Notes under the pieces: model-generated | What the model saw: the letters and a program-made list of their open reading frames with translations, nothing else | The model's database searches: none | What the model was told of the DNA's origin: nothing | Shown here: piece after piece, positions 3,177 through 52,837 of the stretch | Numbering within the stretch: the first letter of the stretch is position 1 | Layout of the letters: each line of letters opens with the position of its first letter | Program-made: the position numbers and the translations under genes | Assembly (NCBI GenBank): GCA_965279565.1 | Contig: OZ257249.1 | Span: 2,897,116-2,961,115 of the forward strand | Direction: 5' to 3' | From: Tagaea sp. | Lineage (GTDB): Bacteria > Pseudomonadota > Alphaproteobacteria > CACIAM-22H2 | Length of the DNA: 64,000 bases

Positions 3177-3337
3177 CCTTGGTTTCCGCTCAATTCCCTT
3201 CGTTGCCGGAAATTGTGGAAACTATCATTGAAATCATTGAATAAGCAGAAGTCTGGGGGACTGGGGGTCGCAGGTTCGAATCCTGTCGCTCCGACCATCA
3301 AAGAAGCCCGCTAAATCAATGATTTAGCGGGCTTCAC
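3177..3337 (+). repeat. repeat family copy A: conserved leader + tRNA 3'-half-like module (…GGGGGTCGCAGGTTCGAATCCTGTCGCTCCGACCA) + 13-bp-stem hairpin GCCCGCTAAATCAaTGATTTAGCGGGC
   Basis: Seen directly. Leader CCTTGGTTTCCGCTCAATTCCCTTCGTTGCCGGAAATTGTGGAAACTATCATTGAAATCATTGAATAAGCAGAAGTCTGGGGGA. T-arm is a 5-bp stem GCAGG/CCTGT with one G-U pair and loop TTCGAAT. Then a 7-nt acceptor strand CGCTCCG, discriminator A, CCA. Lies between the convergent HK and kdpE genes. Confidence 0.8.
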
Positions 3338-3350
3338 GGTTTCGGGATTG

Positions 3351-3520
3351 CCTCTGGTTTCCACGTAGTTTCCATCCGGTTTCCTTTGCTGCCGAAAAGG
3401 AGGGAAACTGACGTTGAAATATTTGAATAAGCAGCAGTCCAAAGGACGGGGATCTTAGGTTCGAATCCTGTCGCGCCGACCGTCAAAAAAGCCCACTGCC
3501 GGGCAACCGGCGCGGGCTTT
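3351..3520 (+). repeat. repeat family copy B, tandem to A and more diverged: leader + GGATCTTAGGTTCGAATCCTGTCGCGCCGACCG + hairpin GCCCACTGCCGGgcaaCCGGCGCGGGC-TTT
   Basis: Same architecture and strand as copy A with an internal insertion in the leader (TTTCCATCCGGTTTCC). Ends 5 nt before the kdpE stop. Confidence 0.7.
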
Positions 3521-3525
3521 GTCGT

Positions 3526-4221
3526 TCAGGTGCCCAATATGAATCTATAGCCCACACCGGGTTCGGTCAGAATGAAGCGTGGCGCGGCAGGGTCGTCTCC
3601 AAGCTTCTCGCGAAGCTGCCGTACATAGACCCGCAGGTACTGCGTATCGGCGACGTGCGCCGGCCCCCAAACGCGCTCGAGGACCATGCGGTGTGTCAGG
3701 ACCTTGCCGCCCGCCTGAGCAAGCAGCTTCAGCAGATCATACTCCTTGGGCGTAAGCTTGATCTCCGCGCCGGCTAGGCGGACGCGGCGCTGCACCAGAT
3801 CGATTTCGAGATCACCGCTGCGGATGATCGGCTCGGCGCCGGATTCTTGGAGTCGGTGCCGGAGGGCTGTGCGCAGGCGCGCGAGAAGTTCCGGCATGCC
3901 GAAGGGCTTGGTGACGTAGTCGTCTGCGCCCTCATCGAGTGCGGCAACCTTCTCGTCTTCACCGGCGCGCACCGACAGCACGATCACCGGTACGGCGGAG
4001 AACTCGCGGATGCGCGTCAACGCCGTGTGCCCGTCCTCGTCCGGCAGGCCGAGATCGAGGAGTACGGCGTCCGGCTTCTCGCGTGCGACGGCAGCAACGC
4101 CTTCGCGGGCGGTCGCGGCCTCGATCACGGTGTCGCCCTCGGCCTCCAGCGCCACGCGTAGCAGTTTGCGCAACTGCGGCTCGTCGTCGATGACCAGGAC
4201 GCGGCGCTTGGATGAGTTCAT
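3526..4221 (-). CDS. kdpE: KdpE, OmpR-family response regulator of the kdp operon
   Basis: MNSSKRRVLVIDDEPQLRKLL...winged-helix C-terminus (LTPKEYDLLKLLAQ...GYRF). The ATGA overlap with the kdpD stop indicates translational coupling. Confidence 0.9.
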   Translation of the reverse strand: MNSSKRRVLVIDDEPQLRKLLRVALEAEGDTVIEAATAREGVAAVAREKPDAVLLDLGLPDEDGHTALTRIREFSAVPVIVLSVRAGEDEKVAALDEGADDYVTKPFGMPELLARLRTALRHRLQESGAEPIIRSGDLEIDLVQRRVRLAGAEIKLTPKEYDLLKLLAQAGGKVLTHRMVLERVWGPAHVADTQYLRVYVRQLREKLGDDPAAPRFILTEPGVGYRFILGT

Positions 4222-6941
4222 CTCGGCTCCGGCCGGGCTTCGTCGGGCTGCGGATCGACCGGCAGGTCGACGATCGCGCGCGTACCGTAGCCGTCGAAGA
4301 TCGGGCTTTCCAGCCGGACCGTCCCGCCGTGCGCCTCGACGAGGCCACGGCAGATCGCAAGCCCCAATCCGGTTCCGGCGATCTGCCGGTCGCCCCAGCG
4401 CCCGTCCTCCCCGCCACGCACGCGATAGAACTTGTCGAAGACGCGCTCGAGATCGGCGGCAGGCACGCCTCGGCCGCGGTCCTCGATGGCGATTCGCAGC
4501 CGCGAGCCGGTTACGGAAGTCGCGACGGAGATTGACGTACCGTCCGGTGAGTATTTGGTCGCATTGTCGAGAAGATTGTAAAGAGCCTGACCGAGCAGTG
4601 TCGGATCGACACGCAGCAGCGGCAAGTTCGGGCTGGCGGATACCGTCACTTCGCGTGCGGGAAGTCGTTTGCGCAGTCGGGCCACGGCGGTACCGACAAG
4701 TTCGCGCACATCCGTCCAGTCGCGCCGAAGTGCAAGGGCACCACCTTCCAGACGCGTCATATCGAGCAGGTTGCCGACGAATCGCGCGAGGCGGTCGGAT
4801 TCCTCGTGGATCGCGTCGAGGAGCTGCCGCCGAGAATGTTCGTCGAGGCTGCTGCCGGTCCGCAGCGTGGAAATGGCCCCGGTGATCGTTGAAAGCGGTG
4901 TGCCGAGATCGTGGCTGATCGAGGAAAGCAGTGCGGCTCGCAGCTTCTCGGATTCGGCGAGCACCTTAGCTTCGCGCATTTCTGCGTCGAGTCGCATGCG
5001 GCCAATTGCGATTGCGGCCTGGTCGGCGAGCGCGTCGAGCAGCCGGCGCGCGTCGGGATCGAGCGACTTGTCCTTCGGCGGTCGGATCCCGAGTACTCCG
5101 ACCGGGCCGGCGGCCGTGCGCATCGGCACATAGAGCCGTTCTGCCGACGGCAGCGTGCCGGAGCCGAGGCCCGCCGCTTCGCCTTTGTCGCGGGCCCAAT
5201 GGGCGGCCGCCCAGTCGCCGGCGGGCAGGTCGTCCTCGGGTGGATAGCCGCCTCGCACGACAAGCCGTTCGTCCTGCGCGAGAAGTACGACGGTGCCTAC
5301 GCCCAGCATCGTCGCAACCTGGTGGGCGACAATCCAGATGAGATCGTCCAGTGCGGCGGCGGCAGCAAGTTTACGCGCAAAGTCGTAGAGGGCCGCGGTC
5401 GTCCGGAAGCGCCGACGTGCGTCTGTCGCCTGCTCGCGAACGCGGCTCGCCTGACTCGACAGCAGGACGGCGACGACGACGAAGATCGCCAGCGCCAGGA
5501 TGTCGCGCGGGTCACCGATCGTCAGCGTCAGGTAGGGCTCGACGAAGAAGAAGTCGAATACCAGTGTGGCCAGCAGCGAGGCATAGAGCGATGGCGACAG
5601 GCCGAAGCGCACTGCCGTGTAGATGATCGACGTGAGCAGCAGGATCGGCTCGACGTTCGGCGTGTCGAACTGCAGGCGAAGGAGCCAGCACAGCCCGGCC
5701 GCGGCGAAAACGGCACCGGTCGCCTCGATGAATGGTTGTGGCCCTCGGGCCGCGCGTGCAGCAAGCCGGACACGCAATGCGGCGGTGAGCCGTTCGCGCA
5801 CCGACGGGCCATCCGACGGCACGATATGCACCCCGATGGCATCGTTTGCGCGGATCAGCTCGTGCACGAGAGACCGTCCGAACCATTCGCGCCAGCGCGG
5901 TCGCCGGGTCTTGCCGATGATGATCTGGGTAATGTTCTGGCTGCGCGCGAGATCGAGGATTTCGACGACGACGTCGGACGTGGGGATCACGCGCGCCTCG
6001 CCGCCAAGCCGGTCTGCAAGCTTCAGCGCATCGGCAATGCGCGTCTTTGCGGCCTCGTCGAGGCTGGCGTGGTGCGGGGTCTCGAAATTCACCGCCATCC
6101 ACTTGGCACCGATCTGGTCCGCCAACCGCCGCGCTGCGCGAACGATAGGGGCGGGATCTGGATAAGCCGATATGCAGGCGAGGATGCGCTCGCCCGCCGG
6201 CCACGGCCCCGGAATCGCCTGGCGCAGCATCAGCCCGACCATCTGGTCGTCGACGCGCTCGGCGGTGCGGCGAAGTGCCAGTTCGCGTAAGGCGGTCAGG
6301 TTGCCGGGTCGGAAGAAATGCTCGGCTGCCCGTTCGGCATTGGTGCCCTTGTAGATCTTGCCTTCCTTGAGGCGCTTGATCAGGTCATCCGGCGTGAGAT
6401 CGACGAGTTCGATCGCGTCGGCGCGCTCGAGTACGGAATCCGGCAGCGTCTCCTGCACCCGCACGCCAGTGATTTTCGCGACGATGTCGTTGAGGCTTTC
6501 GAGGTGCTGGACATTCAGCGTCGTCCAGATATCGATGCCGGCGGCAAGCAATTCCTCGACGTCTTGATGGCGCTTGGGGTGACGCGATCCCGGCGCGTTC
6601 GTATGAGCGAGTTCGTCGACGAGCAGCAGGCCCGGCCGGCGGGAGAGGGCGGCGTCGATATCGAATTCTTCGATTTCGTGCCCGCGATGCGCGAGTCTGC
6701 GACGGGCCAGGACCTCGAATCCGTCGAGCTTGCCAGCGGTGGCGTCACGACCATGCGTTTCGATGATGCCGGCGACGACATCGATCCCCTCGGCTTTGCG
6801 CGCCTGTGCTGCTTCAAGCATCGCATAGGTCTTGCCCACGCCGGGGGCTGCACCCAGGAACACCTTCAGGCGGCCGGCCCCTTCGGACTTGGCGACCGCC
6901 AGCAGCGCATTCGGATCCGGGCGGTCGTCGGCGTTGGTCAT
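4218..6941 (-). CDS. kdpD: KdpD sensor histidine kinase (KdpD N-terminal domain, Usp, TM, GAF-like, HisKA/HATPase)
   Basis: 907 aa with a Walker-like N-terminal KdpD domain (FLGAAPGVGKTYAML), H-box ISHDLGTPLS and HATPase motifs (GTGLGLAICRGLVEAHGG). Confidence 0.9.
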   Translation of the reverse strand: MTNADDRPDPNALLAVAKSEGAGRLKVFLGAAPGVGKTYAMLEAAQARKAEGIDVVAGIIETHGRDATAGKLDGFEVLARRRLAHRGHEIEEFDIDAALSRRPGLLLVDELAHTNAPGSRHPKRHQDVEELLAAGIDIWTTLNVQHLESLNDIVAKITGVRVQETLPDSVLERADAIELVDLTPDDLIKRLKEGKIYKGTNAERAAEHFFRPGNLTALRELALRRTAERVDDQMVGLMLRQAIPGPWPAGERILACISAYPDPAPIVRAARRLADQIGAKWMAVNFETPHHASLDEAAKTRIADALKLADRLGGEARVIPTSDVVVEILDLARSQNITQIIIGKTRRPRWREWFGRSLVHELIRANDAIGVHIVPSDGPSVRERLTAALRVRLAARAARGPQPFIEATGAVFAAAGLCWLLRLQFDTPNVEPILLLTSIIYTAVRFGLSPSLYASLLATLVFDFFFVEPYLTLTIGDPRDILALAIFVVVAVLLSSQASRVREQATDARRRFRTTAALYDFARKLAAAAALDDLIWIVAHQVATMLGVGTVVLLAQDERLVVRGGYPPEDDLPAGDWAAAHWARDKGEAAGLGSGTLPSAERLYVPMRTAAGPVGVLGIRPPKDKSLDPDARRLLDALADQAAIAIGRMRLDAEMREAKVLAESEKLRAALLSSISHDLGTPLSTITGAISTLRTGSSLDEHSRRQLLDAIHEESDRLARFVGNLLDMTRLEGGALALRRDWTDVRELVGTAVARLRKRLPAREVTVSASPNLPLLRVDPTLLGQALYNLLDNATKYSPDGTSISVATSVTGSRLRIAIEDRGRGVPAADLERVFDKFYRVRGGEDGRWGDRQIAGTGLGLAICRGLVEAHGGTVRLESPIFDGYGTRAIVDLPVDPQPDEARPEPR

Positions 6942-6953
6942 ACGGACTTTCGG

Positions 6954-7514
6954 CTAGGGCCGCAGTGCATCGAGGGCGAGATTGAGGCCGAGAACATCGA
7001 CCCGTGGCTGGCCCAGTATGCCGAGTTCGCGGCCGTGCGTGAACTGCGCCAAAAGATTCCGGACCCGGTCCTCCGGGACCCCGCGTGCGGCGGCAACCCG
7101 CGCCACCTGGCGCTCGGCATTTGCGGGCGAGATATGCGGGTCGAGGCCGGATGCGGATGCCAGCACGGCATCCGCGGGGATCGGCTTCGGCCCCCCAAGC
7201 GTTTCGACGTCGCTCTTCACGCGCTCGACAAGCTTGGCCGACGTTGGCCCGAGATTGGCACCGCCAGAAGAGGTCGCGTCATATCCGGCGCTGCCGGCGG
7301 CGGAGGGCCGACCGTGGAAATATCGGTCGCTGGCGAAACTCTGGCCGATCAGCGCCGATCCGACGACACGGCCGTCGCGTTCGATCAGCGAGCCGTTGGC
7401 GGCATGGCTGAACGCGATCTGGCCGATTCCGGTGACTAGCAGCGGATAAAGCACGCCGCAAATCACCGAAAACACGATCAGCAGAACGAAGGCGGGGCGG
7501 ATATGGACGTACAT
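6954..7514 (-). CDS. kdpC: KdpC, K+-transporting ATPase subunit C
   Basis: Real protein starts at the internal ATG (MYVHIRPAFVLLIVFSVICGVLYPLLVTGIGQ...), 186 aa. The listed 357-aa ORF carries an Arg-rich spurious N-terminal extension that overlaps kdpB. Confidence 0.85.
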   Translation of the reverse strand: MYVHIRPAFVLLIVFSVICGVLYPLLVTGIGQIAFSHAANGSLIERDGRVVGSALIGQSFASDRYFHGRPSAAGSAGYDATSSGGANLGPTSAKLVERVKSDVETLGGPKPIPADAVLASASGLDPHISPANAERQVARVAAARGVPEDRVRNLLAQFTHGRELGILGQPRVDVLGLNLALDALRP

Positions 7515-7522
7515 GGCTAACC

Positions 7523-9562
7523 TCACGCGAGCCCGAGGGCGGAAACGAGAATGTCGACGGCCTTGATGCCAACGAACGGAACGAGGATGCCGCCCAGCCC
7601 GTAGACGAGCAGGTGACGGCGCAGAAGTTCGCCGGCCGGCATCGGGCGATAGGCGATGCCCTTCAGCGCCAGCGGGATCAGCGCCACGATGATCAGGGCA
7701 TTGAAGATCACTGCCGACAGGATGGCGCTTTGCGGCGTGGCCAACCCCATGACATTGAGTGCGCCGAGCTGCGGGTAGGCGGCGACAAACAGGGCCGGGA
7801 TGATCGCGAAGTATTTCGCGACGTCGTTGGCGATCGAGAACGTCGTCAGCGCGCCGCGCGTCATGAGGAGCTGCTTGCCGATGCCGACGACCTCGATCAG
7901 CTTGGTCGGGTTCGAATCGAGATCGACCATGTTGCCGGCCTCGCGCGCAGCCTGCGTGCCGGTCTGCATGGCAAGCCCGACATCGGCCTGGGCAAGGGCA
8001 GGCGCGTCGTTCGTACCGTCGCCGCACATCGCCACCAGCCGGCCCTTGGCTTGTTCGGCGCGGATGAAGGCGAGCTTGTCTTCGGGCGTCGCCTCTGCGA
8101 TGAAATCGTCTACGCCAGCCTCGGCGGCGATGGCCGCGGCTGTCAGCTTGTTGTCGCCAGTGACCATCACCGTGCGCACGCCCATCCGGCGAAGCTCGGC
8201 AAAGCGCTCGCGGATCCCGGCTTTGACGATGTCCTTCAGGTAGATGATGCCGAGGAGACGGGTACCTGTGGTACCGGTCTCTGCGACAGCCAGCGGCGTG
8301 CCGCCGCTGCGCGCGATGCGTTCGACTTGTTCAGCCACCGCCGTCGGCAGCGGGACGCCCGCGAACCGCACGATTGAATCGACGGCCCCCTTGCGGATAC
8401 GTCGCCCCGGCAGGTCGACACCGGAAATCCTGGTCTGCGCAGTGAAAGGGACGAACACGGCCGCAGGGTCGCCGGCGGGGGCCGCTCCAAGCCGTTCCTG
8501 GGCGAGACGGACGATCGAGCGTCCTTCGGGCGTCTCGTCGGCGAGCGAAGCGAGGAGGGCCGCCTCGGCGAGTTCCCGCTCCGATACGCCCAGTGCGGGC
8601 GCGAAAGCCGTCGCCATGCGATCGCCCAGCGTGATCGTCCCGGTCTTGTCGAGCAGCAGCACATCGACGTCGCCGGCCGCTTCGACCGCGCGGCCCGACG
8701 TCGCCAGCACGTTGAACTTCACCAGCCGGTCCATGCCAGCTATCCCAATCGCCGAGAGCAGACCGCCGATGGTGGTAGGGATCAACGTCACGAACAGCGC
8801 GACCAGAACCGTCAACGACAGGGCAACTCCGGCGTAGGCCGCGAATGCTGGCAGGGTCGCGACGACCACAACGAAGATCAACGACATCCCGGCGAGAAGA
8901 ATGTTCAGCGCGATCTCGTTGGGCGTCTTCTGCCGAGAGGCACCCTCGACGAGGGCAATCATCCGGTCGAGGAAGCTCGATCCCTGTGCTGCCGTGATCT
9001 TGATCCTGATCCAGTCCGACAGGACGACCGTGCCGCCGGTGACGGCCGACCGGTCGCCTCCCGACTCTCGGATGACCGGGGCGGATTCGCCGGTGATGGC
9101 GCTTTCATTGACCGACGCGATGCCTTCGACGACGGAGCCGTCGCCCGGGATCGTGTCGCCCGCCTCGACCATGACGACGTCGCCAACCTCTAGCTCGGTC
9201 GCGGACACCTTCTCGTATATGTCGCCGGGGCCGTAGACGATCCGCTTGGCCCAGGTCTCGGTCTTCACCTTGCGCAGCGCGTCGGCCTGCGCCTTGCCGC
9301 GCCCTTCGGCGACGGCTTCGGCGAAATTGGCGAACAGGACGGTGAACCAAAGCCATGCCGCGATCTGGCCAGAGAATCCCGCCGAGTGATCGCCGGCGAG
9401 ATCCCGGACGAAGGTGAGGGTTGCGACGCCAGCAACCACGGCGGTTACGAAGATGACCGGATTGCGGACGAGGCCGCGCGGATCGAGCTTGGCGAAGGCC
9501 GCACGGGCGGCCGGCAGCAGGATCGCGGGGTCGAAAAGCGAGATTTCCTTGGCGCGTGCCAT
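7523..9562 (-). CDS. kdpB: KdpB, P-type ATPase catalytic subunit
   Basis: 679 aa with phosphorylation motif DKTGTIT, plus TGDN and [10 protein letters not shown] motifs. Confidence 0.95.
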
Positions 9563-9586
9563 GGTCGTTGTTCCTTTTCTGCGCGA

Positions 9587-11296
9587 TCAGAAGGTCTGGC
9601 CGGCGAGCATCGCGAAATGCTCGACGATCGGACCGAGAGCGAGGGCCGGGAAGAAGCTGAGGCCACCGACGACTAGGATTGTGCCGGCAAGCAGCACGAC
9701 GAACAGCGGGCCATCAGTCGGGAAGGTGCCATCGGAGGCAGGCACGCGCTTCTTGGCAGCAAGCGCGCCAGCGAGTGCGAGCACCGGCACGATGATTGCG
9801 AAGCGTCCGACCAGCATCGCGATCCCGAGCGTGGTGTCCCAGAACGGCACGCTGGCGGTGAGCCCGGCAAAGGCCGAGCCGTTGTTGCCTACGGCCGACG
9901 TGTAGGCATAGAGCGCCTCGGAAAAGCCGTGCGGACCGTCGTTGTTGAGCCCGCCGAGAGCGCCCGGCCAGAGCAGGGCAAGGGCCGTGAACGCCAGGAT
10001 GAAGACCGGTGGCACAAGTACGACGAGGCTGGCAAGCTTGACCTCGCGCGCCTCGATCTTCTTGCCGAGATACTCGGGCGTACGCCCGACCATCAGGCCG
10101 GCAACGAACACTGCGATCACTGCATAGACCAACATGCCGTACAACCCCGAGCCCACGCCGCCGAACACGATCTCGCCAAGCTGGATCATGAACATCGGCA
10201 CGAGGCCACCGAGCGGCGTGAAGCTGTCATGCATTGCATTGACTGAGCCGTTGGAGGCGGCAGTGGTGACTACGGCCCAGATAGCCGACCAGGCAATGCC
10301 GAAGCGGGCTTCCTTGCCTTCCATGTTGCCGTCGGCAGGGTCGAGGCCAAGTGCGATCAGGATCGGGTTGCCGGCAGCCTCCGCGGCGTAGCAGGCGGCA
10401 AGCCCTACAAGCAGCAGCACAGTCATAGTTGCGAGCAGGACGGTTCCCTGGCGCGATGCGCCGACCATCCGGGCGAACGTCACGGTGAGTGCGGCGGGGA
10501 TAGCCAGAATCGCCCATAACGAAAGCAGGTTCGTCCATCCGTTCGGATTTTCGAATGGGTGGGCGGAGTTGGCATTGAAGAAGCCACCGCCGTTGGTGCC
10601 GAGCTGCTTGATCGCAATCTGCGAGGCGACAGGGCCTAGCGCGATCGACTGCGAGGCGCCTTCGAGCGTTGTCGCCTCGACATTGGCCGAAAAGCTCTGT
10701 GGAATGCCGAGTGCGACGAAAGAGATCGCCAGAGCAAGTGACAATGGCAGCAAGACATAGAGGGTTCCGCGTGTCAGGTCCGCCCAGAAATTTCCCACCC
10801 CGCGTGATTCAATGCGCGCAAAGCCGCGCGTCAAAGCCAGTGCCAACGCGATGCCCGTCGCCGCAGATACGAAGTTCTGCGTCGCGAGACCGAACATCTG
10901 CGACAGATGGCTCATCGTCGATTCGCCGCCATAAGACTGCCAATTCGTGTTGGTGACGAAGCTGACCGCCGTATTGAATGCCAAATGCGGGTCGAGCGCG
11001 GCAAGGTCGTTCGGGTTGAGCGGCAAAACGCCCTGCAGGCGAAGCAGCCCATAGAGTAGAACGAAACCGGCTGCATTGAAGGCGAGCATCGCACCGACAT
11101 AGCCGAGCCATCCCTGGTCGCGAGTCGCGTCGATGCCGGCGAACCGGTAGAGATCCACCTCGATGCGTCCGAGGAGCGGGGACAAGAACGTCCGCTCGCC
11201 GGCGAAAACGCGCGCCATATAGACGCCGAGAGGGACAGCACTGGCGAGAACCAGGCCGACGACAAGCAAGATCTGTAGCCATCCCATCGGGGTCAT
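9587..11296 (-). CDS. kdpA: KdpA, K+-translocating subunit
   Basis: 569 aa polytopic membrane protein ([31 protein letters not shown]...). Canonical position between kdpF and kdpB. Confidence 0.95.
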
Positions 11297-11324
11297 GGCG
11301 GGTACTCCGGTTCTCTCGTGTGTT

Positions 11325-11411: not shown

Positions 11412-11421
11412 CGGGGCGCCC

Positions 11422-11772: not shown

Positions 11773-11792
11773 GAAGTCTTCGATGAAAATCT

Positions 11793-43944: not shown

Positions 43945-43960
43945 GTCCGGGAACTAGGCG

Positions 43961-45352
43961 ATGGCGCGCGCCATCCGTTCGCTGCACTACGACGTCGCCG
44001 TGATCGGCGGCGGCAGTGCCGGCGTGGCGGCGGCGGTCGCTTCCGCGCGCAACGGCGCGCGGACGGTCCTTGTCGATGCCGGCCCGATGGCGGGTGGCGA
44101 ACTGGTCAGCGGTCTGCCGCTCAACGCCGTGCTGAACGCGCGCGGCGAATGGGTCGCGGGCGGCATCTGCCGCGAGCTGGTCGAGGCGTGCCGCGCGATG
44201 GGCGGGCTCGTCGAGCCCTATTTCGACTGGCGCTCGCTGTGGCTCGTCTGCGTCGATCCGGAGATCATGAAGATCGCGGTCGCGCGCCTGCTGCGTGATG
44301 CCGGCGTCGACCTGCTGCTCTACAGCTTCGCCGAGGACGTCGTCGTCGAGGACGGCCGCGTCACCGGCGTGTTCGTGCTCAACAAGAACGGCCGCAACCT
44401 GGTCGAGGCCGACCTGTTCGTCGACTGCTCGGGCGACGGCGACATCGCGGCGATGGCGGGTGCCCCGTGGGAGAAGGGCGGCGAGAAGGGCGAACTGCAG
44501 CCCGTCACGCTGATCTTCCGCATGATGGGCGTGGAGACCGAGCCGCTGCTCGATTTCGTGCGCAAGCATCCCGAGAACGTGGGATTGGGCGAATGCCTGC
44601 TCGAGCCGCGCTCGAAATCCGACTGCGCGGAAGAGCTCTACCGGCAGGGCGTGCCGTCGGTGTTCTTCGACGGCAAGGCGCCGTTCGTGGCGCGCGCGAT
44701 CGAACGGGGCGAGCTGCATCCGTGCGGCATCCTCGCGGTCTGCCCGCTTTCCACCCAGCGGCGCGAGGTCAGCCTCAACACCACGCGCATCGCCAATCTC
44801 GACGCGACGCGCACCGACGTGCTGAGCCAGGCCCTGCCGCAGCTCCTCGACCAGGTCTGGACCTGCGCGAGCTTCCTGACGAAGCGCGTGCCTGGCTTCG
44901 AGAAGGCCGCCTTCAGCGGGATCGCGCCGCGCATCGGCATCCGCGAGACGCGGCGTATCCTCGGCGAATACGTGCTGACCGGGGCCGACGTGCTCGCCGG
45001 GCGCAAGCGCGCCGACGGCATCTGCAAGGGCGCGCACGAACTGGACGTGCACGGGGCCGGCAGCGCGCATCGCCGCGAGATGATCGCCGAAGGCGGCTCC
45101 TACGACGTGCCGTTCGGCTGCCTGCTGCCCAAGCGCACGGCGAACATGCTCGTCGCGGGGCGCTGCCTGTCGGCGACGCGCGAGGCGCACGGGTCGGCGC
45201 GCGTGATGGGCACATGCATGGGCATGGGGCAGGCGGCGGGAACCGCCGCGGCCCTGTGCGCGGCGGATGGAACATCCCTGCGGCAGCTATCGGTGCCCGC
45301 TTTGCGCGAGCGCCTGGCTTCGCAGGGGGCGATTCTCGAAGGAACACACTAG
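43961..45352 (+). CDS. FAD-dependent oxidoreductase, tandem paralog of the previous
   Basis: MARAIRSLHYDVAVIGGGSAGVAAAVASARNGARTVLVDAG. Collinear similarity to the 42541 gene across the whole length, roughly 50-60% identity by eye. Confidence 0.75.
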   Translation: MARAIRSLHYDVAVIGGGSAGVAAAVASARNGARTVLVDAGPMAGGELVSGLPLNAVLNARGEWVAGGICRELVEACRAMGGLVEPYFDWRSLWLVCVDPEIMKIAVARLLRDAGVDLLLYSFAEDVVVEDGRVTGVFVLNKNGRNLVEADLFVDCSGDGDIAAMAGAPWEKGGEKGELQPVTLIFRMMGVETEPLLDFVRKHPENVGLGECLLEPRSKSDCAEELYRQGVPSVFFDGKAPFVARAIERGELHPCGILAVCPLSTQRREVSLNTTRIANLDATRTDVLSQALPQLLDQVWTCASFLTKRVPGFEKAAFSGIAPRIGIRETRRILGEYVLTGADVLAGRKRADGICKGAHELDVHGAGSAHRREMIAEGGSYDVPFGCLLPKRTANMLVAGRCLSATREAHGSARVMGTCMGMGQAAGTAAALCAADGTSLRQLSVPALRERLASQGAILEGTH

Positions 45353-45386
45353 GCGGATCAACCGTCATAACGAAGGAGAGGGAACG

Positions 45387-46676
45387 ATGGGACATTTCAG
45401 GAGCCTTACGGGCACGGCGCTGCTGGCGCTGGCAACGATCGGAAGCGGGGCCGCTTCCGCGCAGACGACCGTCACGATGTGGACGTTCCTCGATCCGCTG
45501 CGCACGTCGCCGCGCGAGATCGCGCTCAAGCAGATGATCGAGGGCTTCGAGAAGGCCAACCCGTCGATCAAGATCAAGGTCGAGCCGCAGGACTTCGCGC
45601 AGATGCCGCCGCGCTTCTTCCTCGGCCACGGTACGGGCCAGAATCCCGACATCGTGTGGATCGACGCCAAGAATCTCGGCGGCCTGATCCAGTCGGGTGC
45701 GGCGACCGACCTGCAGCAGACGCTCGTCTCGAAATGGCCGGCCGGCCAGCGCGAGGATTTCTTCGTGGGTGCGGGCTGGGATGCGGCCAAGCAGGGCAAC
45801 AAGCTGCACGCCCTGCCGCTGTTCCACGGTGCGAGCGTGATCTACTACCGCAAGGACCTGCTGCGCGAGGCCGGCATCGATCCGGCGACGCTGAAGAGCT
45901 GGGATGCCATCGCCGAGGCGGCCAAGAAGCTGACCAAGACGAAGGACGGCCGCGTCGACGTGTGGGGCTTCGGCATGCCGCTCGCCCCCACCAAGACGGA
46001 GAGCACGCCGCTGCTGATCGGCATGATCGACGCCGGCGGGCAGATCTTCAACGGCTGCAAGGCGAACTTCGCCACGCCGGCCGGCGTGCGCGGGCTCAAC
46101 TTCACCGCCTCGCTGATCACCCAGCACAAGGTCACGCCGCAGGAAGCGCTGGCCCAGCACGTGGACGACATCACCGACCAGTTCACGGCCGGTCGCTACG
46201 CGATGGCGATCACCGCGAACCTGCGCTTCAGCGCCGTGGCGCGCGCCGCGGCGTTCGGCGGCTCGAACATCGGCGTCCTGCCGTGGCCGACCTGGACGGG
46301 TCAGGGCACGGGGCCCATGCCGGTCTCCGGCTGGTGGGTCGCGATGTGGAACAAGTCGCCGCGCCAGGCCGAAGCCGGGAAGTTTGTCGAGTACATGACC
46401 GGGGCCGAGGGCGTGAAGCTCTGGTCGACGGTCGGCGGACAGGTCCCGACGCGCAAGTCCGTCCTCGCCGAACCCGTCTTCAAGGAGCCGCAGAACGAGT
46501 GGATCCAGACGATGGTCGCGGCGTGGTCGGCCCGCAGCTGGATCGAGCCCACCGAGTGCAACACCCGCACGATGCAGGCCGCCCTCAACGAGGCCGTGCA
46601 CCGCGTGGTGCTGCAGAACGCCAACCCGATGGACGCGCTCAGGGAAGCCGAGCGCAAGTTCAACGACGCCCAGTAA
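45387..46676 (+). CDS. second sugar ABC substrate-binding protein (paralog of 38359)
   Basis: Start MGHFRSLTGTALLALATIGSGAASA with an AAGGAGAG SD. Shares blocks with the first binding protein (QTTVTMW.FLDP, GWDA, GQVPTR, PTECNT). Confidence 0.85.
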   Translation: MGHFRSLTGTALLALATIGSGAASAQTTVTMWTFLDPLRTSPREIALKQMIEGFEKANPSIKIKVEPQDFAQMPPRFFLGHGTGQNPDIVWIDAKNLGGLIQSGAATDLQQTLVSKWPAGQREDFFVGAGWDAAKQGNKLHALPLFHGASVIYYRKDLLREAGIDPATLKSWDAIAEAAKKLTKTKDGRVDVWGFGMPLAPTKTESTPLLIGMIDAGGQIFNGCKANFATPAGVRGLNFTASLITQHKVTPQEALAQHVDDITDQFTAGRYAMAITANLRFSAVARAAAFGGSNIGVLPWPTWTGQGTGPMPVSGWWVAMWNKSPRQAEAGKFVEYMTGAEGVKLWSTVGGQVPTRKSVLAEPVFKEPQNEWIQTMVAAWSARSWIEPTECNTRTMQAALNEAVHRVVLQNANPMDALREAERKFNDAQ

Positions 46677-46742
46677 CGACGACAAGCGGCGGGGCGGCCG
46701 TCGGGCCGCCCCGGTCCGCATCAACCCGAGAGGAACGAGAAC

Positions 46743-47501
46743 GTGGACACCAAGCTTGCCGACAAGACCGTCTTCATCACCGGCGCCGGTGCCGGCATCG
46801 GGCAGTCGATCGCGAAGCATTTCGCGATCGAGAAGACGAACGTCTACGTCACCGACATCAGTGGTGCTGCGGCCGAGCAGACCGCCAAGGAAATCTGCGA
46901 TGCCGGCGGCCGTGCGACCGCCATGGCGCTCGACGTGACGAAGCGCGCGGACGTGTTCGCCGCGATCGGCAAGGTCGTGGATGCGACGGGCGGCGTCGAC
47001 GTGCTCGTCAACAATGCCGGCGTGGTGGCGCTGGCGAAGATCGAAGAGATCACCGAATCGGAGTTCGACCGCATCTATGCGGTCAACGTGAAGGGCAAGC
47101 TTTTCTGCATGCAGGCGGCGGTGCCCGCCATGAAGAAGCGCAAGTGGGGTCGGATCATCAACACCTGCTCGATCTCGGGCAAGACGGGCGGCAAGCTGCC
47201 CTACGCGCACTACACCTCGTCGAAGGCCGCTGTGTGGACCATGACGATGGCCGCCGCGCACGAGTTCGCGCCGTTCGGCATCAACGTCAACGGGATCGCG
47301 CCCGGCTCGGTCATCGGAACGGCCTTCTCGAAGGGCTTCGATCTCAACAACGATCCGGAAGTCCTGAAGGCGACGATCCCGCTGGCGCGCCGCGGCGTGC
47401 CGGACGACATCGCACCTGCCGTGGTCTTCCTTGCCTCTGACGGGGCCCGCTACATCACCGGCGAGCTCATCGACGTCAATGGCGGACTGCACATGGATTG
47501 A
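46743..47501 (+). CDS. SDR-family oxidoreductase
   Basis: GTG start. TGAGAGIG glycine motif, NNAG, YxxxK (YTSSKAAV). Confidence 0.85.
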   Translation: MDTKLADKTVFITGAGAGIGQSIAKHFAIEKTNVYVTDISGAAAEQTAKEICDAGGRATAMALDVTKRADVFAAIGKVVDATGGVDVLVNNAGVVALAKIEEITESEFDRIYAVNVKGKLFCMQAAVPAMKKRKWGRIINTCSISGKTGGKLPYAHYTSSKAAVWTMTMAAAHEFAPFGINVNGIAPGSVIGTAFSKGFDLNNDPEVLKATIPLARRGVPDDIAPAVVFLASDGARYITGELIDVNGGLHMD

Positions 47502-47511
47502 GGGCACGAAC

Positions 47512-48726
47512 GTGGCATCCCTGAAAATCGAAGCGATCGAATGCATCCCGGTCACGGTGCCGATCGAGGCGCCGATCCTGACCTGCTACGGCTCGCTCGC
47601 GGCCTATCCGCGCGTGCTGGTCAAGATCGTCGCCGAGAACGGCCTCGTCGGCTACGGCGAGACGGCGGCCCGCTACAAGCCGGAGACGTTCCGGATGTTC
47701 GAGTCGATCTTCAAGGGATCGAATCCCTGGGAGTCGACGCGGCTGATCAGCCGGATCAAGCACTGGAACTACTATCCCTGGCAGAAGCCCGAGCCGCTGA
47801 TGGCCGGGCTCGAGCTTGCGTGCCTCGACCTGGTTGGCAAGTCGATCGGCGAACCGCTGCACCGCATCCTCGGCGGCAAGATCCACAAGGAGGTGCCCGT
47901 CGCCTCCTACCTGTTCTATCGCCACGCCAACGCGGCCGGGCAGGGCAAGATCCATACGGTCGACGAGGTCGTGGCCTTCGCCAAGGCGCAGGTCGCGCAG
48001 TACGGGTTCGGCGCGCTGAAGCTCAAGGGCGGCTATTTCTCGCCGGAAACGGATCGCGACGCGCTTGTCGCACTTCGCGACACGTTCGGGCGCGACATGC
48101 GCCTGCGCCTCGATCCGCAGGGCTGCTGGACGCCGGTCACGGCCGTGCGCATCGGCCGTCAGCTCGACGCGATCGACCTCGAATACTACGAGGATCCGTG
48201 CTGGAACGCCGCCGGGATGGCGCGCGTCAAGAAGTCGGTCACCACGCCGCTGGCGACCAACATGTGCGTGACGCAGTTCGAGGAGTTCCATCCCGCGACG
48301 TCGATCGGGGCGGTCGACGTCGTGCTCAGCGATCTCTGGTACTGGGGCGGAGCGCGCGCGACGATGGCGGTCGACCGGATGTGCCATGCCAGCGGCATCG
48401 ATCTCGGCATGCATTCCAGCGCCGAGCTGGGCGTGGGCTGGGCCGCGATGATCCATGTCGCGAGCGCCATGCCGCACCTGAAGCTCGCCATCGACTGCAT
48501 GAACCTGCATCTCGTCGACGACATCATCGTCGGCGGCAAGCTCGTGCCGAAGAACGGCACGATCGCGCCGCCCGACGGCCCGGGGCTGGGCGTGGAGATC
48601 GACGAGGTGAAGCTGAAGAAGTACGCGGAACTCGCGCGTTCGGGCTCGGCGAGCGACCGCTTCCTCGATCCGACGCTGGCCGATAGTGCAAGGCCGGGCT
48701 GGCATCCGCACAGCCCGACCTGGTGA
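47512..48726 (+). CDS. enolase-superfamily enzyme (mandelate racemase/muconate lactonizing family; glucarate-dehydratase-like)
   Basis: Start at the GTG after the SDR stop, with a GAGGG SD (MASLKIEAIECIPVTVP...). MR_MLE N- and C-domains with conserved acid/base and metal-ligand positions (KLKGG, LDPQG, EDP). Confidence 0.75.
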   Translation: MASLKIEAIECIPVTVPIEAPILTCYGSLAAYPRVLVKIVAENGLVGYGETAARYKPETFRMFESIFKGSNPWESTRLISRIKHWNYYPWQKPEPLMAGLELACLDLVGKSIGEPLHRILGGKIHKEVPVASYLFYRHANAAGQGKIHTVDEVVAFAKAQVAQYGFGALKLKGGYFSPETDRDALVALRDTFGRDMRLRLDPQGCWTPVTAVRIGRQLDAIDLEYYEDPCWNAAGMARVKKSVTTPLATNMCVTQFEEFHPATSIGAVDVVLSDLWYWGGARATMAVDRMCHASGIDLGMHSSAELGVGWAAMIHVASAMPHLKLAIDCMNLHLVDDIIVGGKLVPKNGTIAPPDGPGLGVEIDEVKLKKYAELARSGSASDRFLDPTLADSARPGWHPHSPTW

Positions 48727-48743
48727 GACAAGCAGGGGACAGG

Positions 48744-49412
48744 ATGATCGATCTCGACAAGCACGACTGGCCGTCGATCGCGGCGCGCTTCAAGCGGCTC
48801 TACACGCCGGCGGTCTGCGACGTGCTCGACGACTACGAGCTGCGCCACCAGTACGTCCACCATGGCATCCGGCCGCTCGACCGCACGCTGATGCTGGCAG
48901 GCCCCGCCTTCACGATCGTCGGCATGTCGAACTCGACGCGCGACAAGTCCAAGCGCATGGGGCCGCGCGTCATCGACAGCTTCGTGCCGCATGTCGTGGC
49001 CTGCTACGACACGATGGGCAACGAGGACACCGGCGTGTGGGGCGAGCTGTGGAGCGTGGGTGCCGCCAAGCGCGGCTGCGTGGGTGCCGTCGTCGATGGC
49101 GGCATTCGCGACACGGCCTATATCCGGCGCGCGGGCTTCCCGATGTACCATCGCCACACCGCACCGGGCGACGCGGTCGGCCGTTTCAACATCGTCGATT
49201 TCAACTGCCCGGTGTCGATCGGCGGCGTGCGCGTCAATCCGGGCGACTACGTCTTCGGCGACGAGGACGGCATCATGATCATCCCGCGCGCGATCACGAT
49301 CGAGGTGCTGGAGAGGGCGGAAACCGTCTGCGCGCGCGAGAACCGCATCCGCGACGCGATCGACGGGAACACCTCGCTCGCCGATCTCTACACGAAGTTC
49401 GGCCAGTTCTGA
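48744..49412 (+). CDS. RraA-like protein (4-hydroxy-4-methyl-2-oxoglutarate aldolase / RraA family)
   Basis: Start at the internal ATG (MIDLDKHDW...) with an AGGGGACAGG SD. RraA-like fold motifs GAVVDGGIRD and IIPR. Confidence 0.75.
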   Translation: MIDLDKHDWPSIAARFKRLYTPAVCDVLDDYELRHQYVHHGIRPLDRTLMLAGPAFTIVGMSNSTRDKSKRMGPRVIDSFVPHVVACYDTMGNEDTGVWGELWSVGAAKRGCVGAVVDGGIRDTAYIRRAGFPMYHRHTAPGDAVGRFNIVDFNCPVSIGGVRVNPGDYVFGDEDGIMIIPRAITIEVLERAETVCARENRIRDAIDGNTSLADLYTKFGQF

Positions 49413-49422
49413 GCGCCGCCGC

Positions 49423-50298
49423 ATGGCCGCCCCGAAGCGCCGAATCCTGCTGACGGGATCGCTCGGCCATCTCGGCGCGGCCGTCGCGCGTGAGCTTGCC
49501 GGGGCCGGACACGAGCTGACCTGCATCGACCGGCGCCCGCCCGACGGAAACCCGCCGGGCGCCTTCGTGCGCGACGACCTGTCGGATGTCGGGCGGCTCG
49601 CGGGCCTGATGAACGGGATGGACGCCGTCGTCCATTGCGCCGCGATCGCCAGGCTGCACGCGGCCCCCGAGGAAACGGTCTTCGCGACGAACGTCACGAC
49701 GACCGCGAACATGCTGCTTGCGGCCGAACGCGCCGGGATCGGCCGTTTCGTCTATGCGTCGAGCCAGTCGGCCCTGGGTTTCGCCTATGCGCCGCGCATC
49801 GTGCCTCCCGACCGGCTGCCGGTCGACGAGACGCATCCCTGCCGGCCGGTCGAAGGCTACGGGCTGAGCAAACGCGTGGGCGAACAGCTTTGCGAGATGG
49901 TGTCCGCGCGGTCGGCCATGACGAGCGTGGCGCTGCGCTTCCCGGTCATCTGGTCGCACGAACGTTTCGAGGCGCACACGCGCAAGCGACTCGACGATCC
50001 GGTCCAGGCAGCTAAGAGCCAATGGGCCTATGTCGACCTGCGCGACGCCGCCACTGCGTGCCGGCTTGTGTCAGAGGTAACGCTCACCCATCCTCATCGC
50101 GTATACAACATTGGCGCAAGCCGGCCATTCGAGCTTACTGATGCGGCCGTAATTCTAAGAGTTTCCTATGGCGAAGTTGATGGATTGTCGGATGTTTTAG
50201 CATCGGGTGATGCGTTGTTCGATACCACCCGGGCTAGGTTCGAACTAGGGTTCCAGGCGCAATGGTGCTGGAACAGAATGCGGGTCGAGCATGTCTAA
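49423..50298 (+). CDS. NAD-dependent epimerase/dehydratase family protein
   Basis: ILLTGSLGHLGAAVARELAGAGHEL Rossmann motif. The last ~70 codons (from about 50090) are markedly lower in GC than the rest of the gene. Confidence 0.75.
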   Translation: MAAPKRRILLTGSLGHLGAAVARELAGAGHELTCIDRRPPDGNPPGAFVRDDLSDVGRLAGLMNGMDAVVHCAAIARLHAAPEETVFATNVTTTANMLLAAERAGIGRFVYASSQSALGFAYAPRIVPPDRLPVDETHPCRPVEGYGLSKRVGEQLCEMVSARSAMTSVALRFPVIWSHERFEAHTRKRLDDPVQAAKSQWAYVDLRDAATACRLVSEVTLTHPHRVYNIGASRPFELTDAAVILRVSYGEVDGLSDVLASGDALFDTTRARFELGFQAQWCWNRMRVEHV

Positions 50299-50367
50299 CT
50301 GTTCGCACTTCATTGTCGGCCAAGTTGCTGAGGAGGTCGGGGACCAGAATGCCAATTTTCGTAACCT

Positions 50368-50490
50368 CGGTTCCTTGATTTCCACTCAGTTCGTTCAAAT
50401 GCGAGAAACGGTAGAAATGCCGTTGAAATCACTGAATAATTATCAGTTTTGAGGGCTGGGGGCGTAGATTCGGATCCTGTCGCTCCGACC
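50368..50490 (+). repeat. repeat family copy F (most diverged, AT-rich): GGTTCCTTGATTTCCACTC...CGTTGAAATCACTGAATAATTATCAG...GGCTGGGGGCGTAGATTCGGATCCTGTCGCTCCGACCA
   Basis: Same modular order as copies A-D and the same acceptor-like end CGCTCCGACCA, but a degraded T-arm and no clear downstream hairpin. Confidence 0.6.
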
Positions 50491-50852
50491 AAACAAACAG
50501 GCCAGCCGGTCACAGGATCGACTGGCGTTGTTCGTTCTGCCTTGCGCTACTGCGGGGTCGGCTCATCCCGCACGATCAAGTTCATCGATCGCGACGCGCA
50601 AGCTCGGCATTGCGTCCCTGCGCGAGCCAGTCGGAGACGGGCCGGTTGTGGTGATCGATGCGCGCCATTCGATCTGGAGCCGCATCTTCGTGAACATGCT
50701 GTAGCCCGTCAGGGCAAGGAACGCCGTCGCCAGTGCGGCGAAAGGGCCGAAACCTTTTTTCTCTGACCTGCATGCACAGAACTCGTTGATCAGAGATCTG
50801 ATCGACGGGCTTTTCGAGAAAATTGCATTGCCGTACTCAAAATTCGGAAGGC

Positions 50853-52328
50853 TCACGGCTTCCGTGATCTCCATTCCCGCCAGAACGGCCAGACGAAACA
50901 TGCGGCCGCGACAAGTAGCAGGCCAAGCGATCCCGGGCGGGTCACGAGTGGCCACATCGAGCCGTCGGATATCATGAGTGCCGACCGAAGTTTCGCTTCC
51001 GCCATCGGTGCCAGGACGAAGCCGATCACGAACGGGGCAAGTGGGAAGCGTGCGAATTCCATCGCCAATCCGACCAGTCCGAACAGAAGCATGATCCAGA
51101 CGTCGGAGACCTGCCCATCGACGGCGAACGCTCCGACAATGCAGAACACGACAACGGTCGGGAACAGAATCGCGCGAGGTACGAGCATTAGCCTGGCGAA
51201 GAGAAGCACGCCTGCCGTCATCAGCACGTACATCGCGACATGCGCGACAAGGTGCGTCGCCATGATCGTGTTGACGATTTCGGGATTCGTCGAGAACAGC
51301 AGCGGGCCGGGCCGCAGGTTGTGCATGACGAGGGCCGCCAGCAGGATCGCGTCGGCGATCCCGCCGGGAATTCCCAGTGCTAGGAGCGGGATAAGCGAGC
51401 CGCCGGTCGTCGCGTTGTTGGCGCTCTCCGCCGCGACGATCGCCTCCTCGCTGCCCGTGCCGAACGCCTCCGGGGTCTTCGACACGTTCTTCGCGACCGT
51501 GTAGGCGACGATCGACGACACTGCCGAGCCTACGCCTGGGTGGATCCCGATCCACACGCCGATCAGCGAAGAACGCAGCATGTTCCAGCCATGCACGACA
51601 TAATCGCTGAGCCGGAGAAAGACGCCACGCATCGACGCGCGGACATGATCGTTGCCTTGTTCGATGTGCATCGTGTCGGCGACGAGCTGCGACATCGCGA
51701 ACAGGCCGATGACGACGGGCAAAAGCTGGAATCCGTTGGTCAGCGCTTCGACGCCGAATGTCAGACGTACGATGCCGGAAGTCTGGTCTACGCCCGGCAT
51801 CGCGACGAGGACGCCGAGCAATGCCGAAATCATACCTTTGAGGAACGAACCGCGGCTGAGGGAGGAAACGAGCACGAGCGCGGTGAGCACGAGTGCGAAA
51901 TTCTCCCAAGGCCCCAGCAATACGGCGAGATCGGCCACAGGGCGCGTCAGCAACACAAGGAAGAGCCAGCCCACGAATCCGCCGACGATCGAACCGGCAT
52001 TTCCGAGGCCCAGTGCCCGCCCGGGAAATCCCTTTTTGGCGAGCGGATAGCCGTCGAGCGTCGTCATCACCGCATTCGGCTCGCCGGGGATGCGCATCAG
52101 TGTCGCAGTGACAAGACCACCCGAGATACCGCCCACGAACATCGAGATCAACAGCACGATCGCATTGGTCGGCGACATCGAGTAGGTGAACGGCAGCGTG
52201 AGCGCCATCAACATGCCAGCCGTGATACCCGGCATGACGCCGACGGCGATGCCGATCGTCACGCCCGTCATCATGATGAGGAAGGGGAGGGGCGTTGCTA
52301 GATTGAAGAAAGCGTCCGCAAGCGTCAT
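50853..52328 (-). CDS. tctA: TctA-family tripartite tricarboxylate transporter large permease
   Basis: 491 aa from the internal ATG (MTLADAFFNLATPLPFLIMMTGVTIGIAVGVMPGITAG...). The listed 658-aa ORF has an Arg-rich spurious N-terminus. Confidence 0.9.
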   Translation of the reverse strand: MTLADAFFNLATPLPFLIMMTGVTIGIAVGVMPGITAGMLMALTLPFTYSMSPTNAIVLLISMFVGGISGGLVTATLMRIPGEPNAVMTTLDGYPLAKKGFPGRALGLGNAGSIVGGFVGWLFLVLLTRPVADLAVLLGPWENFALVLTALVLVSSLSRGSFLKGMISALLGVLVAMPGVDQTSGIVRLTFGVEALTNGFQLLPVVIGLFAMSQLVADTMHIEQGNDHVRASMRGVFLRLSDYVVHGWNMLRSSLIGVWIGIHPGVGSAVSSIVAYTVAKNVSKTPEAFGTGSEEAIVAAESANNATTGGSLIPLLALGIPGGIADAILLAALVMHNLRPGPLLFSTNPEIVNTIMATHLVAHVAMYVLMTAGVLLFARLMLVPRAILFPTVVVFCIVGAFAVDGQVSDVWIMLLFGLVGLAMEFARFPLAPFVIGFVLAPMAEAKLRSALMISDGSMWPLVTRPGSLGLLLVAAACFVWPFWREWRSRKP

Positions 52329-52837
52329 GGCAGGGCCACCAGCAGGATCTTGCGGAAGACGTGCTCGATCGCCGCTGTCGCAGTCAGAGCCACGCCGATA
52401 ACCCAATAGATGAGCGGCCGGCGCATGCGTGCCATCGCAAGTCCGAGGATTGCAAGGAACACGAATGTCGACAGGAAGAAGGGGACGTTGAGCCAGATCG
52501 CGGCGACATAGGCGGCTGTTGCCGCGAATGCAAATGCCGCAAGCCCGGGGCGCAGCGGATAACCGGCATCTCCGGCCGAAGCATCCAGCCCGCCAATCAG
52601 CGACTGCGTCGCCTGACCGATATGCAGCCCCAGCAGTGCTCGCACGAGAAGTGCGAAGCCCAACGCGAGCAGGGCAAGCGCCGCCGCCATCGGAACGGCG
52701 CCGGGACCGAGCGGATCGTAGACCGCAGGCGGCTCGCGCCAGCCGGCGACGAAGGCGACGCCGCCGACGACGATTACGACCGACGCGGCGAGCGCATCGT
52801 TCCGGTGTTCGCCCTCGGGCGGCTTCCAACTTGCCAA
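52325..52837 (-). CDS. tctB: TctB-family small permease
   Basis: 170 aa with 4-5 TM segments. ATGA overlap with tctA. Confidence 0.7.
   Translation of the reverse strand: MASWKPPEGEHRNDALAASVVIVVGGVAFVAGWREPPAVYDPLGPGAVPMAAALALLALGFALLVRALLGLHIGQATQSLIGGLDASAGDAGYPLRPGLAAFAFAATAAYVAAIWLNVPFFLSTFVFLAILGLAMARMRRPLIYWVIGVALTATAAIEHVFRKILLVALP

Follow-up and report, generated by a model that had tools for sequence, protein, structure and literature searches.

Here we describe a repeated unit of ~175 nt in a 64-kb stretch of DNA from Tagaea sp. (contig OZ257249.1, positions 2,897,116 to 2,961,115; below, the window). The full unit consists of a conserved arm, the 3′ part of a tRNA-Pro(GGG) gene, and a hairpin, and its copies lie between self-contained blocks of genes. 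The region was probably assembled by repeated site-specific insertion, with the units as attachment (att) site scars of tandem accretion and with a recombinase that acted in trans. Direct observations comprise the unit’s anatomy, the shared orientation and the clustering of its copies, the mosaic of blocks among relatives, and a kdp island at a tRNA-Pro gene elsewhere that contains no integrase. A first-pass annotation of this DNA had proposed that the repeat copies partition the window into operon blocks, and these blocks are confirmed by our gene map, based on codon bias (56 genes called), and by Pfam scans, from which one partial gene was left out.

Anatomy and distribution of the unit

Repeat finding in the window recovered direct repeats of 135 to 175 nt that form one family. 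There are five full copies (A, B, C, D, and F) and a truncated one (E), all on the plus strand and all intergenic:

3169-3340, plus strand: unit A, the best-kept copy; arm ~3172-3249, tRNA-Pro(GGG) 3′ part 3250-3297, hairpin 3303-3333
3355-3520, plus strand: unit B, the most diverged full copy; tRNA part 3435-3482, hairpin 3489-3517
11603-11775, plus strand: unit C; tRNA part 11684-11731, hairpin 11737-11772
25619-25788, plus strand: unit D; tRNA part ~25701-25748 with 7 substitutions, hairpin truncated
25789-25819, plus strand: second tRNA fragment, 31 nt, the 3′ end of another tRNA, directly after D
35598-35654, plus strand: unit E, reduced to ~55 nt from the start of the arm (nhmmer E = 2e-7, model positions 16-71)
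50370-50540, plus strand: unit F, diverged; tRNA part ~50444-50491, T arm mutated, hairpin of its own type

The pattern TTGAAATNWYTGAA-N25-42-TTCGRATCCTG matches the window five times, always on the plus strand, versus no match in 100 shuffles. A profile built from the copies picks up E as the sixth copy, which lacks the AT-rich motif, the tRNA part, and the hairpin, and the profile search found no further unit between F and the end of the window. Unit B begins 15 nt past A (3340-3355), leaving what amounts to an “empty” cassette, and lies immediately before the kdpE stop codon.

To describe the unit, we aligned first 14 and then 18 copies, including those from other genomes. The arm (75 to 95 nt) carries the invariant motifs TgGTTTCC, a second TTTCC 11 bp further on, TGCCGGAAA, an inverted GGAAAC, and CATTGAAATCATTGA. 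It thus contains two or three GTTTCC motifs spaced 11 bp apart (three, all direct, in unit B), along with the inverted GGAAAC and a 9-bp direct repeat (ATTGAAATC/ATTGAATAA). A short and highly variable junction separates the arm from the tRNA part, which reads AGT-CTGGGGG-ACTGG-GGGTC-GCAGG-TTCGAAT-CCTGT-CGCTCCG-A-CCA and corresponds to tRNA-Pro(GGG) from the third-to-last base of the 5′ anticodon-stem strand onward, through the 3′ end. In unit A, this part is 48 nt long, ends in GACCA, and has 0 mismatches to the consensus 45-mer, and in unit B its T stem is broken. Altogether, the window holds five displaced 3′ fragments of the same tRNA, 45 to 48 nt long and all in the same orientation on the plus strand.

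When the unit was compared with phage genomes by blastn, it matched annotated tRNA-Pro genes over their 3′ ~50 nt and nowhere else. The identity to tRNA-Pro starts at the anticodon stem-loop (CTGGGGG loop) in all units and ends in GACCA. A start at the anticodon loop is subsite A, the commonest attP type and crossover subsite of tyrosine integrases in Islander (PMC4383910). In one relative (locus L026), the T stem differs by changes that preserve pairing (GTGGG/CCCGC), as expected if the fragment was copied from that host’s own tRNA.

The first-pass annotation had also reported a second tRNA fragment beside unit D, and we recovered it as the 31-nt 3′ fragment at 25789-25819. It consists of a T arm (GTAGG/TTCGAGC/CCTAC) followed by GGCGCCCACCA, is Val-like, and starts at the T stem. 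The known crossover subsites are the anticodon loop, at which the Pro parts begin, the T loop, and the T/acceptor junction. A scan for T arms gave 5 matches versus 0.43 expected. A comparable case occurs in another locus, L022, in which a Lys(CTT) fragment that begins at the anticodon stem (22105-22165) is fused to a decayed Pro fragment, a chimera that ARAGORN calls as a 68-nt tRNA-Lys. Elements of other tRNA specificities seem to have used the same spots (Val-like in the window, Lys in L022). A TTCGAATCCTG string without a matching stem is present at 35480-35500, between the stop codon of the btaB-like gene and the arm of E, and may be a further decayed tRNA fragment. ARAGORN found no intact tRNA or transfer-messenger RNA (tmRNA) gene in the window and no tRNA in the Tagaea loci.

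The hairpin has the form AAGCCCGCC...GGCGGGCTT in most copies, and two other types exist. Since it has an A-run on its 5′ side (a T-run on the minus strand), it reads as a minus-strand terminator. Terminator prediction called the hairpin of unit B on the minus strand, and none was called on the plus strand at the hairpins of units A to C. The right-hand gene converges on the unit in 15 of the 18 units (P = 0.0075). The hairpin probably terminates the right-hand operon, and the orientation of the cargo is biased relative to the site.

The units also appear to be under constraint. Arm identity is much the same within genomes (0.77) and between genomes (0.76). Unit A and its positional counterpart in L022 (L022b) have 78% identical arms and 100% identical tRNA parts, better kept than the adjacent orthologous histidine kinase DNA (73%). 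Such conservation, together with the hairpin at the end of the unit, would also suit a small tRNA-like RNA gene (5′ hairpin, AT-rich linker, tRNA-Pro-like 3′ domain, and terminator) that was duplicated between operons, with the block variation as a by-product of recombination between copies. RNAalifold does predict a 5′ hairpin and an extended T-arm helix, and a few pairs change on both sides. However, covariation across the 18 copies is weak and mixed, with many unpaired cells (for example, pair 20-46 is CG in 7 copies, UA in 4, and other or unpaired in 7), and B, D, and F retain the arm motifs despite a broken T stem. No Rfam family reached its gathering score in the window, and none passed the E-value threshold over A and B; the sole relevant signal was a weak match to the 3′ end of tmRNA (14.3 bits versus a gathering score of 47). 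No sigma-70-like promoter was found in or before units A to C, and the hairpin reads as a terminator on the opposite strand. Strict co-orientation, clustering, and the combination of a tRNA and a direct repeat in L024 (see below) would not be expected of a small RNA family either, and we regard this explanation as quite improbable.

In a scan of 185,579 species genomes, the unit was confined to Tagaea metagenome-assembled genomes (MAGs) and one Rhodospirillales MAG. Within a genome, all copies share a strand and lie no more than tens of kilobases apart, as in the following contigs:

CBDIIB010000004.1: copies at 43.9, 56.5, and 62.8 kb
JBGAKN010000004.1: copies at 301, 313, and 373 kb

With extra copies in L022 and L026, the total reaches 18 full units in seven genomes, 13 of them outside the window. 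The blocks that flank these 13 copies are catabolic or transport blocks, almost all of them different between loci. In plasmid and phage collections, matches were limited to the tRNA-Pro part, and no element carried the whole unit. A scan of viral contigs gave a single match, which we rejected as a chance match inside a coding sequence, and a metagenome scan gave no additional Tagaea-type units.

A unit that is short, multicopy, intergenic, and limited to one lineage could in principle be a small nonautonomous repeat, of the miniature inverted-repeat transposable element or repetitive extragenic palindrome type, that targets intergenic terminators and resembles a tRNA incidentally. We find this barely plausible. 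The unit has neither terminal inverted repeats nor target-site duplications, and the copies of each genome are on one strand in one region. The tRNA part is a precise 48-nt 3′ block, and in L026 its T stem is compensatory, as if copied from the host tRNA. Moreover, it is the blocks rather than the units that vary between genomes.

The metagenome scan also turned up three unrelated lineages with a 3′ fragment of tRNA-Arg or tRNA-Gln in which the sequence TTGAAAT(C/T)ATTGAA lies ~11 nt ahead of the anticodon loop (L012; L016, 3436-3510; L018, 2077-2150). In L012, a tyrosine integrase gene (5605-6748, minus strand) ends ~30 nt upstream of this motif. We treat these lineages as no more than suggestive, because the search pattern required the motif and we estimate that a handful of matches are expected by chance.

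Block mosaic in the window and among relatives

The window and one Tagaea MAG (locus L007b) are ~91% identical over a shared block, and the edge of this block coincides with a unit. In L007b, a unit is followed by the ortholog of the lyase gene that lies to the right of C in the window. The arms of the two units are 72% identical, a level equal to that of paralogous copies. From the anticodon loop via the hairpin into the next gene and block, the two sequences are about 91 to 93% identical. The left sides are unrelated, with an insertion sequence (IS3) fragment, a secretin, and a Sel1 protein in L007b and kdp in the window. As the arm is conserved at the paralog level and the right side is orthologous, the arm moves together with the block to its left, and the hairpin with the one to its right.

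The kdp block was also seen in three other neighborhoods. The closest KdpD (93% amino acid identity) belongs to L024/L025, a locus that was retrieved with the KdpD protein and thus independently of the unit motif. Window positions 3539-11601, from just past B to just before C, are 85.9% identical to the L024/L025 DNA. In L024/L025, kdp lies between an intact tRNA-Pro(TGG) (ARAGORN) and an exact 47-bp repeat of its 3′ part, which runs from the anticodon loop to past the tRNA 3′ end. An intact tRNA at the island end, as in Islander-type islands, is therefore present for the kdp block here. The interval holds only kdp genes, with no integrase detected by Pfam, and both core motifs of the arm in the window, CATTGAAA and GGTTTCC, recur in the attR arm there. 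L026 has a Pro(GGG)-type unit immediately next to kdpE, and a methyltransferase block lies on its other side. In the more distant L028 and L030, kdp has no adjacent unit or tRNA. L024 also has a decayed unit, located after the intact tRNA-Pro(TGG) and before kdpE. The kdp block may carry an old scar along with it (B in the window, the inner unit in L024), though B and the decayed L024 unit are not alignable.

The boundary to the left of kdp varies as well. The window begins within a stress-related block that extends from SbmA to the histidine kinase (HK), the intact copy of which runs off the left end. In L022, the SbmA-to-HK block has units on both sides and is followed, to the right of HK, by a block with an extracytoplasmic function (ECF) sigma factor, NDH2, and patatin, which itself ends in another unit. 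In L021 and L029, the SbmA-to-HK block is joined to a DUF1194/ATP-binding cassette (ABC) transporter/lyase block without units. The conserved HK is therefore followed by kdp after A and B in the window, by ECF-sigma/NDH2 in L022, and by DUF1194/ABC in L021/L029. Synteny at the copies, which the accretion proposal of the first-pass annotation led us to compare among relatives, thus breaks at C versus L007b, and the right neighbor of HK differs in every lineage compared.

A further trace of the same block lies beside unit F:

50553-50750, minus strand: SbmA/BacA remnant directly to the right of F, comprising the C terminus and one internal piece, with ~660 nt between them deleted

As L022 has an intact SbmA at the same position relative to a unit, this remnant points to another copy of the SbmA-to-HK block, most of which has been deleted.

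The blocks of the window are as follows:

1-3150: block 0, a YflT-like gene and a hybrid histidine kinase-LuxR gene; the right end of the SbmA-to-HK stress block
3526-11602, minus strand: block 1, kdpE, D, C, B, and A (and F)
11793-25190, minus strand: block 2, beta-eliminating lyase, AMP-ligase, FAD oxidoreductase, creatininase, hydrolase, peptide ABC transporter, Zn-dehydrogenase, glyoxalase-like protein, and thioesterase
25827-35420: block 3, with a minus-strand half (metallophosphoesterase, sugar ABC transporter) and a plus-strand half (GT2, DUF2064, radical SAM, btaA-like [DUF3419], and btaB-like [methyltransferase] genes)
35680-50298: block 4, two short-chain dehydrogenases/reductases (SDRs), GntR, sugar ABC transporter, two FAD oxidoreductases, solute-binding protein, SDR, enolase-like protein, RraA-like protein, and epimerase
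50853-64000: block 5, TctABC, sulfatase, enolase-like protein, dehydratase, LysR, and a second TctBAC

Units A and B thus separate HK from kdp, C separates kdp from the lyase-to-thioesterase block, and D with the second tRNA fragment separates the thioesterase from the metallophosphoesterase. E lies between btaB and the SDR, GntR, and sugar-acid cluster, and F lies between the epimerase and the tct/sulfatase cluster. Blocks 1 to 4 each have a unit on either side, and their cargo consists solely of metabolic, transport, and regulatory genes. The first-pass annotation placed every copy exactly at an operon boundary; every copy is indeed intergenic between blocks, but the copies occupy a subset of the operon boundaries, 5 of ~11. 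The blocks differ in composition, as a per-block profile of GC content at third codon positions (GC3) shows: mean per-gene GC3 in blocks 0 to 5 is 0.72, 0.79, 0.83, 0.79, 0.91, and 0.74 (range of the means, 0.72-0.91; P = 2e-10 by analysis of variance).

Block 3 consists of two compositional halves, the minus-strand sugar ABC operon (GC3, 0.80 to 0.89) and the plus-strand GT2/DUF2064/radical-SAM/btaAB-like genes (0.71 to 0.75), and no unit lies at their divergent junction. In block 4, a tandem duplication has left two adjacent FAD_oxidored genes (42541-45352) that are ~73% identical in DNA sequence. Between blocks 3 and 4, the sugar-ABC ATPase genes (30367-30918 versus 41445-41948) are 71 to 78% identical and inverted relative to each other. 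A 469-amino-acid protein in the tct/sulfatase block (53855-55264, minus strand) has no Pfam family at E ≤ 1e-5.

Recombinase searches and mode of assembly

The first-pass annotation reported no integrase, transposase, or phage gene in the 64 kb, and Pfam scans of the called genes agree, with none of these families among them. Around the 18 units in seven genomes, Pfam likewise detected no PF00589 or other tyrosine recombinase (up to 10 kb per side, which did not always cover whole blocks); the genes found there encode regulators, transporters, and catabolic enzymes, and there is one IS fragment. A tblastn search with the L012 integrase against the window and all loci gave no match and no integrase remnant. 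In L021, a relative without units, a tyrosine integrase (DUF6538 plus Phage_integrase) and a resolvase lie at the left edge of the SbmA-to-HK block (1-3700), with no tRNA fragment seen near them; the same edge is a unit in L022 and a LysR gene in L029.

These results bear on how the units came to be without an enzyme of their own. In a fossil array, islands that each carried an integrase would have inserted at tRNA-Pro(GGG) and later lost their integrase modules, leaving inert scars, and RecA-dependent deletion between these direct repeats would account for the variation from genome to genome. Loss of the integrase module is the standard route to cis-mobilizable elements (PMC5704250), and decay clearly happens here, as seen in units B, D, E, and F of the window, the inner unit of L024, the IS remnant, and the SbmA pseudogene. 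However, no integrase remnant was detected in the sequence examined around the units. All copies retain the arm motifs, and units at orthologous positions have diverged less than the coding DNA beside them. The L024/L025 kdp island, moreover, has a perfect 47-bp repeat and yet no integrase. The absence of an integrase both around the units and in this island argues against repeated loss and for a recombinase in trans. We therefore consider a fossil array unlikely, and loss of the integrases, one of two options named by the first-pass annotation, fits the data less well than a trans-acting recombinase.

Under the accretion reading that we favor, operon-sized circles, each with a P-O-P′ site, would have been inserted one after another by a tyrosine-type recombinase. 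The arm would be the end of an inserted DNA block (P), the 48 nt of tRNA would be O, and the hairpin would be the P′ of the block to the right. Crossover would take place in the anticodon loop, either that of tRNA-Pro itself or that of an O copy already in place, and every insertion would add a P-O-P′ junction. The outcome would be a plasticity zone in which self-contained catabolic, transport, and ion-homeostasis blocks lie between co-oriented units. Here, we infer the recombinase, the circular intermediates, and a protein-binding role of the arm motifs. The anatomy of the unit agrees with what is classically seen when a tyrosine integrase inserts DNA into a tRNA gene by crossover in the anticodon loop. 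Serial insertion is expected to leave internal P-O-P′ hybrid junctions, and both the units and the C/L007b comparison look as such junctions should, which supports accretion. As the blocks lack a recombinase, the enzyme would have to act in trans, encoded at another site in the genome or brought in by a visiting element, and each block would be a cis-mobilizable cassette. It is conceivable, though doubtful, that the units are still live sites at which a trans-acting tyrosine recombinase captures, excises, and reshuffles operon-sized cassettes in an integron-like manner, every cassette bringing along a full attP-like site of ~175 bp derived from tRNA-Pro.

Several observations weigh against the accretion reading or limit it. 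Some concern the order of events: the order of copies does not fit a rule of “newest next to the tRNA,” with the decayed B between the well-kept A and C. A strict left-to-right series is thus unsupported, B looking older than A and C and the SbmA remnant following F. Serial integration into a tRNA, as the first-pass annotation had it, is therefore supported as accretion (by C/L007b, the kdp island, and the HK boundary) but not as a strict serial order. Other observations concern the sites. In L021/L029, breakpoints fall at the same block edges without a unit, so not every breakpoint needs a unit site. Because every copy shares the conserved tRNA part, the switch between C and L007b is resolved only to an interval of ~90 nt that starts at the anticodon loop and closes with the hairpin. 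The kdp block has different arms in the window and in L024, and the target tRNAs differ as well; the cargo must then have moved between Pro(GGG)- and Pro(TGG)-type sites by a route beyond simple excision and reintegration. The array’s left end is outside the window, and no intact tRNA-Pro(GGG) was seen to terminate an array; the negative recombinase and tblastn searches described above count here as well. Finally, homologous recombination between the 170-bp direct repeats could yield part of the presence/absence pattern, and RecA-mediated deletion between direct repeats probably contributes to it.

Relation to known systems

An island in the sense of Islander consists of a tRNA gene (tDNA) and its displaced 3′ fragment, with an integrase required in each island; attP is described as ~250 bp containing a tDNA fragment, and 4 arrays of three or more islands are reported among 3,919 islands (PMC4383910). 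The window resembles such arrays in its displaced 3′ tRNA fragments, their tRNA orientation, the start at subsite A, and the blocks of foreign composition between them, and L024/L025 shows the full signature of an intact tRNA-Pro and a 47-bp repeat. Unlike these arrays, the window has at least 6 junctions in 50 kb and no integrase was found, and the repeated unit of ~175 bp (arm, tRNA part, and hairpin) comprises more than the tRNA part.

Cis-mobilizable elements (CIMEs) related to ICESt1 in Streptococcus are described as decayed integrative and conjugative elements (ICEs) or integrative and mobilizable elements (IMEs), usually one per site, next to a functional element (PMC5704250). Like CIMEs, the blocks have att sites on both sides, lack integration and transfer genes, and would form tandems by integration into a resident att site. 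They differ in being numerous cassettes in succession, made up of plain metabolic operons; remnants of an ICE or IME were not seen, nor is a partner element in view. The hosts are Alphaproteobacteria rather than streptococci, and the target is tRNA-Pro.

Tycheposons of Prochlorococcus carry genes for replication and for a tyrosine recombinase of their own, and the islands contain fragmented integrases (bioRxiv 10.1101/2020.12.28.424599). Their islands share with the window a tRNA seed, incoming elements that push older ones inward, scattered partial tRNAs, and cargo made of nutrient uptake and adaptation modules. In contrast, neither the window nor the related loci contained a tycheposon-type tyrosine recombinase or replication genes, no recombinase fragments were seen, and the arms that flank the tRNA part are conserved here. 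With integron arrays, the window shares co-oriented, recombinase-less cassettes with a conserved end site and a biased cargo orientation. Unlike integrons, it has no intI, attI, or Pc, and its units are tRNA-derived sites, not attC-like imperfect palindromes that form attC hairpins. The cassettes are whole operons of 6 to 15 kb with their own regulators, so the resemblance is functional only. New here is the combination of many consecutive integrase-less operon cassettes, a long conserved unit in place of a bare tRNA repeat, and no trace of a parent element.

Integrase-based island finders, such as Islander, reject such regions by design. In this region, ~50 kb of metabolic operons that look ordinary, the kdp potassium pump among them, behaves as cargo that can be exchanged. 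The GTTTCC motifs with their 11-bp spacing and the ATTGAAATC/ATTGAATAA repeat are concrete candidate binding sites, and the kdp island in the intact tRNA-Pro(TGG) provides a clean attL/attR pair. If the units are active, they would constitute an operon-scale cassette platform driven by a recombinase encoded elsewhere, and the idea of CIMEs and accretion would grow from a curiosity of streptococcal ICEs into a general means by which environmental Alphaproteobacteria diversify their metabolism. If the units are live sites of this kind, Tagaea-like Rhodospirillales would have a dedicated platform, a chromosomal array of >50 kb, for exchanging whole metabolic operons, including kdpFABCDE.

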